Assembly: GCF_003334255.1 (NCBI RefSeq)
Contig: NZ_QOWU01000088.1
Direction: 5' to 3' (one strand)
Length of the DNA: 9,434 nt
Source of the DNA: Escherichia coli
GTDB taxonomy: Bacteria > Pseudomonadota > Gammaproteobacteria > Enterobacterales > Enterobacteriaceae
How positions within the stretch are numbered: the stretch's first letter is position 1; every line of letters starts with the position of its first letter. The notes beneath the pieces are model-generated. The model was not told where the DNA came from. It made no database searches and was given only the letters and a program-made list of their open reading frames with translations. Made by a program: the position numbers and the translations under genes. Below, in pieces: positions 2,051 to 2,866 of this stretch.

Positions 2051-2866
2051 ATGTTTTCAATTCAACAACCACTACTGGTTTTTAGCGATCTTGATGGCAC
2101 CCTGCTGGACAGTCATAGTTATGACTGGCAACCGGCAGCCCCCTGGCTCACCCGTTTACGCGAAGCAAATGTTCCCGTCATTCTCTGTAGCAGTAAAACA
2201 TCAGCGGAAATGCTGTACTTGCAAAAAACGTTGGGGCTACAAGGTTTACCGCTGATTGCCGAAAATGGCGCAGTGATCCAGCTTGCTGAGCAATGGCAGG
2301 AGATAGACGGTTTTCCACGCATCATCTCAGGTATTAGCCATGGCGAAATCAGCCAGGTTTTAAATACGCTACGCGAGAAAGAACATTTTAAATTCACGAC
2401 TTTTGATGATGTCGACGATGCAACTATCGCCGAATGGACGGGATTAAGCCGTAGCCAGGCGGCGCTGACGCAGCTTCATGAGGCGTCGGTAACGCTAATC
2501 TGGCGCGACAGTGACGAGCGTATGGCACAATTTACCGCTCGTCTGAACGAACTGGGCTTACAGTTTATGCAAGGTGCGCGCTTCTGGCACGTCCTGGATG
2601 CCTCTGCCGGAAAAGATCAGGCTGCCAACTGGATTATCGCGACCTATCAACAATTGTCAGGCAAACGCCCAACCACACTTGGCCTGGGCGATGGGCCAAA
2701 CGATGCGCCCTTACTGGAGGTAATGGATTACGCGGTGATTGTGAAAGGGCTAAACCGTGAAGGGGTGCATCTGCATGATGAGGATCCGGCCCGCGTCTGG
2801 CGAACGCAGCGTGAAGGACCGGAAGGATGGCGTGAAGGGCTGGACCATTTTTTCTCCGCCCGTTAA
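2051..2866 (+). CDS. yedP: YedP, HAD-superfamily phosphatase (mannosyl-3-phosphoglycerate phosphatase family), 271 aa
   Basis: ORF begins [27 protein letters not shown], with HAD motif I (DLDGT) near the N-terminus. Recognised as YedP. TAA stop at 2864-2866. Confidence 0.9.

Follow-up and report, generated by a model that had tools for sequence, protein, structure and literature searches.

Convergent overlaps of the yedP/dgcQ and yedA/vsr gene ends in an Escherichia coli chromosomal segment

The window analyzed in this study, that is, the whole stretch of 9,434 nucleotides, was shown to be a segment of the E. coli chromosome with, over bases 78-9434, 98.5% identity to K-12 MG1655 and 100% identity to E. 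coli MLI023K1. It contains four convergent junctions in total, two of which, yedP/dgcQ and yedA/vsr, are overlaps of the coding sequences (CDSs). The features relevant to these junctions are as follows.

Whole window, 9434 bases: E. coli chromosome, in the order fliR'-rcsA-dsrB-yodD-dsrA-yedP-dgcQ-yodC-yedI-yedA-vsr-dcm-yedJ'
1131-1173: rcsA/dsrB hairpin, the dsrB Term-seq end in K-12
1766-1852, minus strand: DsrA, from the Rfam scan
1768-1792: DsrA terminator hairpin, with K-12 Term-seq 3' ends on both strands (DsrA and yodD)
2051-2866, plus strand: yedP CDS, 271 aa, mannosyl-3-phosphoglycerate phosphatase-related, stop codon TAA at 2864-2866 (open reading frame list and RefSeq)
2863-2866: TTAA tetramer containing both stop codons, a 4-nt convergent CDS overlap (read from the sequence; same in K-12)
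2863-4557, minus strand: dgcQ (yedQ), a pseudogene, the 564-codon frame of K-12 with an amber codon, stop codon TAA from 2865 down to 2863
3622-3624, minus strand: internal amber codon of dgcQ, CAG to TAG, Gln312 to stop (Q312*)
6079-6999, plus strand: yedA CDS, 306 aa, drug/metabolite exporter family, stop codon TAA at 6997-6999
6988-6999: 12-nt convergent overlap TCAAGCGAGTAA, with the yedA and vsr codons in register (from the sequence; same in K-12)
6988-7458, minus strand: vsr CDS, 156 aa, very-short-patch repair endonuclease, stop codon TGA from 6990 down to 6988

The window is flanked by IS1 ends at bases 1-77 and about 9361-9434. Bases 1-77 correspond to the IS1 right end (97%) and adjoin fliR, whose final 140 nt begin at base 78, while the alignment to K-12 ends at 9360 within yedJ, with IS1 from there on. 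The window looks like a complete short-read contig between IS1 copies; the source strain would then carry IS1 in fliR and yedJ, and with the former insertion it would probably be non-motile. Among the complete E. coli genomes, three covered at least 80% of the IS1-fliR junction, and none matched it exactly. In an Rfam scan of the whole window, DsrA was the sole match, and no RNA family was detected at either overlap junction.

The yedP and dgcQ genes lie tail to tail on opposite strands and are orthologous to those encoding YedP and DgcQ of K-12, YedP differing from its K-12 counterpart by one amino acid. It had been proposed in the initial annotation that the two stop codons share the tetranucleotide TTAA, and positions 2863-2866 indeed read TTAA, giving a CDS overlap of 4 nt in which the two middle bases belong to both stop codons. 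The 12-bp overlap that had been described for yedA and vsr was likewise borne out, since positions 6988-6999 read TCAAGCGAGTAA, with the yedA stop codon TAA at 6997-6999 and the vsr stop codon TGA (the reverse complement of TCA) at 6988-6990. At the other end of vsr, its start and the 3' end of dcm form a known co-directional overlap of 20 nt (7439-7458), which is intact here.

The expectation that K-12 would have the same arrangement proved correct: the DNA around both junctions is base-for-base that of MG1655, in agreement with the RefSeq coordinates of that strain (yedP, 2025511-2026326; dgcQ, 2026323-2028017; yedA, 2029539-2030459; vsr, 2030448-2030918), and the C-termini of YedP, DgcQ, YedA and Vsr are identical to those of K-12 residue for residue. 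The RefSeq annotation of MLI023K1 also places both overlaps at the same coordinates. A 61-mer spanning the yedP/dgcQ junction was present in 4640 of 5426 complete E. coli genomes and that spanning the yedA/vsr junction in 5364 of 5426, and both genes were annotated under the match in every row sampled for each junction. The arrangement is thus inherited, not a coincidence of one genome. On the premise that about 9% of convergent gene pairs overlap, the occurrence of two overlaps among four convergent junctions within 9.4 kb was roughly estimated to be mildly unusual (p ~0.04).

Convergent overlaps of this kind constitute a known class. E. coli contains 58 of them, with a modal length of 4 nt, and in 58 species 672 of 1890 convergent overlaps are of 4 nt or less (1890 minus the 1218 of at least 5 nt) (Lillo and Krakauer 2007, PMC2174442). 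[quoted passage not shown] The yedP/dgcQ junction belongs to this 4-nt class, as both stop codons lie within TTAA, and it agrees with the class in its modal length and in its origin by stop-codon change and extension; it differs in nothing essential, except that the cross-species series described below adds a predictor based on stop identity and a probable repeated origin. Both pairs have, moreover, been named in the literature, and the overlaps and their overlapping transcription are already known: yedP-dgcQ and yedA-vsr are listed among the 165 convergent excludons of MG1655 in Table 1 of the ExcludonFinder study (NAR 2025, PMC12288877).

To trace both junctions in relatives, YedI, which is encoded between them, was used as the query, yielding 80 loci from species-representative genomes, each able to hold both junctions. 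We used tblastn to find where the orthologues of YedP, DgcQ, YedA and Vsr end, and each C-terminus was extended in frame to the stop codon. yedP and dgcQ were adjacent in 45 loci of Enterobacteriaceae and overlapped in all of them (45/45), with lengths of 4 (9 loci), 16 (9), 19 (4), 22 (9), 34 (6), 37 (4), 43 (2) and 46 nt (2). Each of these lengths equals 1 modulo 3, so that all 45 loci keep one phase, in which 4 nt is the minimum overlap possible. yedA and vsr were adjacent in 78 loci and overlapped in 71 of them, most commonly by 29, 26, 9 or 12 nt, with the phase varying as well; a few loci had short spacers of 0 to 28 nt, and two long outliers apart, the lengths ranged from -28 to +48 nt. 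Since the species are kin to one another, 45/45 and 71/78 do not count independent events. All Escherichia species have 4 nt at yedP/dgcQ and 12 nt at yedA/vsr, and Salmonella enterica subspecies arizonae and diarizonae have 22 and 12 nt, respectively. The overlapping state is therefore old, and the overlap length is unconserved.

Several loci departed from the common pattern. The two yedA/vsr outliers were apparent overlaps of 86 and 269 nt (loci L054 and L066, the latter arising from a 75-codon extension of yedA), which are probably stop-loss or pseudogene cases. Both yedP and dgcQ were missing from the yedI loci of the Citrobacter freundii group, and those of Klebsiella and Raoultella had a DgcQ-like match and no YedP.

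The identity of the yedP stop codon was found to predict fully whether the yedP/dgcQ overlap is 4 nt or longer in the 45 loci: TAA or TAG accompanied the 4-nt overlap in 9/9 loci, and TGA accompanied a longer overlap (16-46 nt) in 36/36. Owing to the conserved phase, the yedP stop codon, read as its reverse complement, is split between two successive dgcQ codons, forming the last base of one and the leading two of the other. With a yedP TGA, dgcQ reads xxT CAG (Gln) and runs 12-42 nt further into yedP, as exemplified by the dgcQ ends ACT CAG GAA TGG GAA AAG AAA TAG in Salmonella and GAT CAG GAC AGG AAG TGA in Enterobacter genomosp. O. With a yedP TAA or TAG, dgcQ reads xxT TAA or TAG and stops, its last codons being GCT TAA in E. 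coli and GAT TAG in Enterobacter asburiae. Thus, one C-to-T transition in the dgcQ strand is enough to convert the yedP TGA to TAA and the dgcQ CAG to TAG together, giving the 4-nt state; such a transition would be silent for yedP, changing one stop codon to another, and would cost DgcQ a short, poorly conserved tail. Because the 4-nt state was found in separate lineages, namely Escherichia, two Citrobacter lineages and two separate Enterobacter lineages, it probably had several origins. The shared TTAA is presumably a mechanical outcome of the reading phase, and the 12 nt of yedA/vsr is one among the many lengths that this junction takes in relatives.

The partner of yedP had been regarded in the initial annotation as a c-di-GMP cyclase, a description that does not hold for this genome: dgcQ is a pseudogene here, the overlooked change being Q312*. 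RefSeq likewise gives dgcQ the status of a pseudogene in the 100% identical MLI023K1, where it is annotated "internal stop". Of 5309 matching E. coli genomes, 207, O104:H4 strains included, carry an exact copy of the 61-mer around the amber codon, and this is therefore a lineage allele, not a sequencing error. In the domain layout of DgcQ, Q312* precedes the second transmembrane segment and the GGDEF domain, and the truncation loses both. The full-length DgcQ cyclase is thus predicted not to be made in the source genome, while an ATG two codons past the amber codon (3618-3616, minus strand) opens an ORF of 251 aa, which would span the C-terminal half of dgcQ. Any interplay between the phosphatase and the cyclase in the source strain would be at most an RNA-level matter. 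We also considered whether the amber codon could provoke Rho polarity and thereby the loss of convergent transcription into yedP; this is not claimed, as the sense RNA after the amber codon is G-rich, not C-rich.

The claim that there is no room for terminators between the paired genes was upheld: there is no intergenic space at either overlap, and any terminator must sit inside the partner gene. The same was noted for convergently overlapping genes in general, whose rho-independent terminators necessarily lie within the partner's coding sequence and were predicted for about 20% of the genes involved (PMC2174442). A consensus terminator scan of the whole window returned 16 sites as against 11.0 +/- 3.1 in shuffled sequences, which is no enrichment, and none of them was at either overlap junction. 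A hairpin/U-tract scan that covered 700 nt past every one of the four stop codons gave weak candidates and nothing convincing at the junctions, and a bidirectional intrinsic terminator, i.e., a G+C-rich stem-loop with an A-tract and a U-tract, was absent within tens of nucleotides of either junction. The candidate elements for termination within the partner genes are listed below.

2666-2690, minus strand: weak candidate terminator hairpin, dG -13.9 kcal/mol, tail UUUG, 197 nt past the dgcQ stop codon, antisense to yedP
2967-3166, plus strand: C-rich, G-poor RNA, 72 C/37 G in 200 nt, candidate Rho loading region, 100-300 nt past the yedP stop codon, antisense to dgcQ
6838-6937, minus strand: C-rich, G-poor stretch, 40 C/18 G in 100 nt, candidate rut site, 50-150 nt past the vsr stop codon, antisense to yedA
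7000-7199, plus strand: C-rich, G-poor RNA, 75 C/41 G in 200 nt, candidate Rho loading region, directly after the yedA stop codon, antisense to vsr

The hairpin at 2666-2690 also appeared in a shorter form in the consensus scan, and weak hairpins were found about 380-440 nt past the yedA stop codon, including a hairpin/T-run at 7400-7426 on the plus strand, ~400 nt past it. Counted per 100 nt, the C/G numbers of the read-through RNA were 30/15 and 42/22 for yedP (100-300 nt past the stop codon) and 40/22 and 35/19 for yedA (0-200 nt past it), and those of dgcQ were weaker, 37/26 (0-100 nt past it). By these composition counts, the RNA downstream of the stop codons was rut-like, being untranslated, C-rich and G-poor. 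Such a composition is, on the other hand, typical of the antisense strand of coding DNA. The C-rich stretches may accordingly be designated as putative Rho loading or rut sites, in view of the preference of Rho for C-rich, G-poor RNA (Peters et al. 2012, as cited in PMC7815308).

An internal contrast to the two terminator-less overlaps is provided by rcsA/dsrB and yodD/dsrA, the remaining convergent junctions of the window, where the K-12 Term-seq ends are located at hairpins (PMC7815308). Bidirectional terminators and collision-driven termination (Ju et al. 2019; Wang and Liu, bioRxiv 2022.10.23.513370) resemble the present case in that they concern convergent pairs with a 3' transcript overlap. 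Bidirectional intrinsic terminators, however, need a stem-loop between the genes, which neither overlap junction has, whereas elements of this type are present at the other junctions as the rcsA/dsrB hairpin and the DsrA terminator, which yodD also uses.

It had also been predicted that convergent transcription would enter the opposing gene, and published K-12 data agree with this, in that both pairs are listed as excludons (PMC12288877) and a Rho termination region lies antisense to yedA (PMC7815308). The positions transferred from these and related K-12 data are as follows.

3444-3464: perfectly paired RNase III duplex, p19-captured in K-12, inside dgcQ, about 580 nt past the yedP stop codon (PMC7373196 Table S3, exact match)
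6636, minus strand: equivalent of MG1655 2030096, peak of the Rho region, 352 nt past the vsr stop codon (transferred via the K-12 alignment)
7423-7443: perfectly paired RNase III duplex, p19-captured in K-12, at the dcm/vsr overlap, about 425 nt past the yedA stop codon (PMC7373196 Table S3, one SNP here)

The Rho termination region at MG1655 2030096 (minus strand), antisense to yedA, has a Rho score of 10.35 and a p value of 5e-10 (Adams et al. 2021, PMC7815308 Supplementary file 2); the coordinate marks the maximum of a statistic taken over an 800-nt window and does not represent a mapped 3' end. The coverage there was 57 upstream and 5 downstream without bicyclomycin, and 206 and 187, respectively, with it (PMC7815308). 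As this region lies past vsr, dcm-vsr transcripts therefore enter yedA in the antisense direction and are ended by Rho in K-12. Rho dependence is documented in this way for one of the four read-through directions only (vsr into yedA), and for K-12 in LB only. [quoted passage not shown] A second Rho region lies inside dgcQ itself, at MG1655 2027287 (minus strand; score 2.67; about 3827 in the window) (PMC7815308), and suggests that dgcQ transcription ends prematurely in K-12 growing exponentially in LB. The present junctions thus resemble known cases of Rho-dependent read-through and antisense termination (Peters et al. 2012; PMC7815308) in having untranslated, C-rich and G-poor RNA after the stop codons and a bicyclomycin-sensitive region past vsr, but differ in that the dependence is documented in a single direction and in K-12, not in the source strain.

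The double-stranded RNA captured by p19 in K-12 amounted to 97-400 RPM for yedQ (dgcQ), 14-92 for yedP, 1-8 for yedA and 2-33 for vsr (Huang et al., PMC7373196), against a background in which 87% of genes give some dsRNA and 13.5% reach 100 RPM in the S sample (PMC7373196). These data show the presence, not the start, of antisense RNA over these genes in K-12. The RNase III duplexes map inside dgcQ and at vsr/dcm, away from the junctions, and are to be read with that 87% background in mind. The duplex at 7423-7443 sits at the dcm/vsr overlap, and antisense RNA therefore spans the dcm/vsr translational coupling region in K-12.

Taken together, both junctions are best explained as ordinary, old and tightly packed convergent gene ends, with stop codons that drift (in a fixed phase at yedP/dgcQ), read-through ended by Rho and incidental dsRNA, a reading to which we assign a probability of roughly 0.85. 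In the proposed mechanism, the ribosome would leave at the stop codon and RNA polymerase would continue into the antisense strand of the partner gene; the read-through RNA, being untranslated, C-rich and G-poor, would allow Rho to stop transcription a few hundred nucleotides in; and the 3' overlaps of the transcripts could pair and then be cut by RNase III. The anatomy, the conservation and the stop-codon rule come from the present analysis, and the overlapping transcripts, the Rho region and the dsRNA from published K-12 work; we infer that Rho acts likewise in the other three directions, and that the pairing of the 3' transcripts is mostly a tolerated by-product with no role as a dedicated regulatory switch. 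Several observations fit this explanation less readily. The yedP/dgcQ overlap is kept in every species sampled, which could reflect selection for overlapping transcription and not mere lack of insertions, and the dsRNA of dgcQ is above average in K-12 (97-400 RPM), pointing to real antisense RNA over this gene. Collision of RNA polymerases (Ju 2019; Wang and Liu, bioRxiv 2022.10.23.513370) could also contribute to termination alongside Rho.

The excludon concept, which reportedly goes back to Sesto et al. 2013, provides the first alternative, namely that selection keeps the overlaps and that the expression of one partner is lowered by polymerase collision and/or RNase III, in which case mutually exclusive expression would be predicted for yedP versus dgcQ and for yedA versus dcm-vsr. 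Both pairs belong to the MG1655 "excludome", in which they were called in at least 50% of 58 RNA-seq samples, and excludon pairs generally show higher synteny (PMC12288877). The present overlaps in 45/45 and 71/78 species representatives, as well as the dsRNA duplexes and read counts in dgcQ and vsr/dcm (PMC7373196), are also in line with it, and the pairs share with the convergent excludons of MG1655 the overlapping 3' transcription published for K-12. The ExcludonFinder criterion is, however, an overlap of coverage-defined transcript ends (PMC12288877), so that the call becomes nearly automatic for CDSs that already overlap once both genes are expressed. The defining property of an excludon is that the expression of one partner represses the other, whereas these pairs are known as transcript overlaps, and dgcQ is a pseudogene here with the arrangement unchanged. 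Further points against selection are that the overlap lengths vary from 4 to 46 nt at yedP/dgcQ and from -28 to +48 nt at yedA/vsr, where the phase varies too; that the yedP-dgcQ pairing is absent at many yedI loci, e.g., those of the Citrobacter freundii group and Klebsiella; and that the dsRNA signals and the expression of yedA and vsr are low, in a genome of which 87% of all genes give some dsRNA (PMC7373196). A literature search found no reciprocal expression, interference or antisense regulation between yedP and dgcQ or between yedA and vsr. We thus consider functional excludons unlikely at these loci, while interference or antisense control between these particular pairs may be possible.

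A comparably improbable alternative is that intrinsic terminators inside the partner CDSs, such as the hairpins at 2690-2666 (minus strand) and 7400-7426 (plus strand), end the transcripts. Hairpins were indeed found in both scans, and of the 58 E. coli convergent overlaps, 19 had a predicted rho-independent terminator for one of their genes and 2 for both (PMC2174442). Their U tracts are nonetheless poor (UUUG and CAUAUUUUUG), and terminator-like sites did not exceed the shuffles in the window. Neither do the published data favor them, as the Term-seq 3' ends curated for the three growth conditions include none in these genes, and the sole termination region mapped here is bicyclomycin-sensitive (PMC7815308). 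In addition, the p19 duplex at 7423-7443 lies beyond the 7400-7426 site, and plus-strand RNA thus passes it.

A more specific proposal, in which the yedP/dgcQ overlap is a selected excludon that couples the cellulose/biofilm diguanylate cyclase inversely to the sugar-phosphate phosphatase YedP and the C-to-T switch is adaptive, seems highly improbable; if it were true, the switch (TGA/CAG to TAA/TAG) would shorten either the tail of DgcQ or the RNA duplex. Finally, that the overlaps are unreal, produced by chance or by a mis-called stop codon or gene, is scarcely conceivable, because all four genes are known and annotated in E. coli, and their 3' ends are fixed by stop codons, with C-termini that align with orthologues to the end in up to 78 species. 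Where databases show long overlaps, mispredicted start sites are often the cause, which is a matter of 5' ends.

Regarded as ordinary convergent gene ends, the overlaps belong to the standard inventory of the E. coli reference genome and have in themselves little import beyond bookkeeping. The present analysis adds the cross-species overlap series with its stop-codon rule, and the finding that neither junction has a convincing intrinsic terminator while the RNA past the stop codons is C-rich and G-poor, as would suit Rho; it also brings out dgcQ Q312*. The 4-nt shared stop requires no adaptive explanation, and the cross-species series provides a textbook case of its origin by one transition. 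Arguments about c-di-GMP signalling via DgcQ in the source strain must reckon with the amber mutation. At convergent overlap junctions, Rho termination is to be expected inside the neighbouring gene, and deletions or insertions at the 3' end of one gene can therefore alter both the C-terminus of its neighbour and the antisense RNA.
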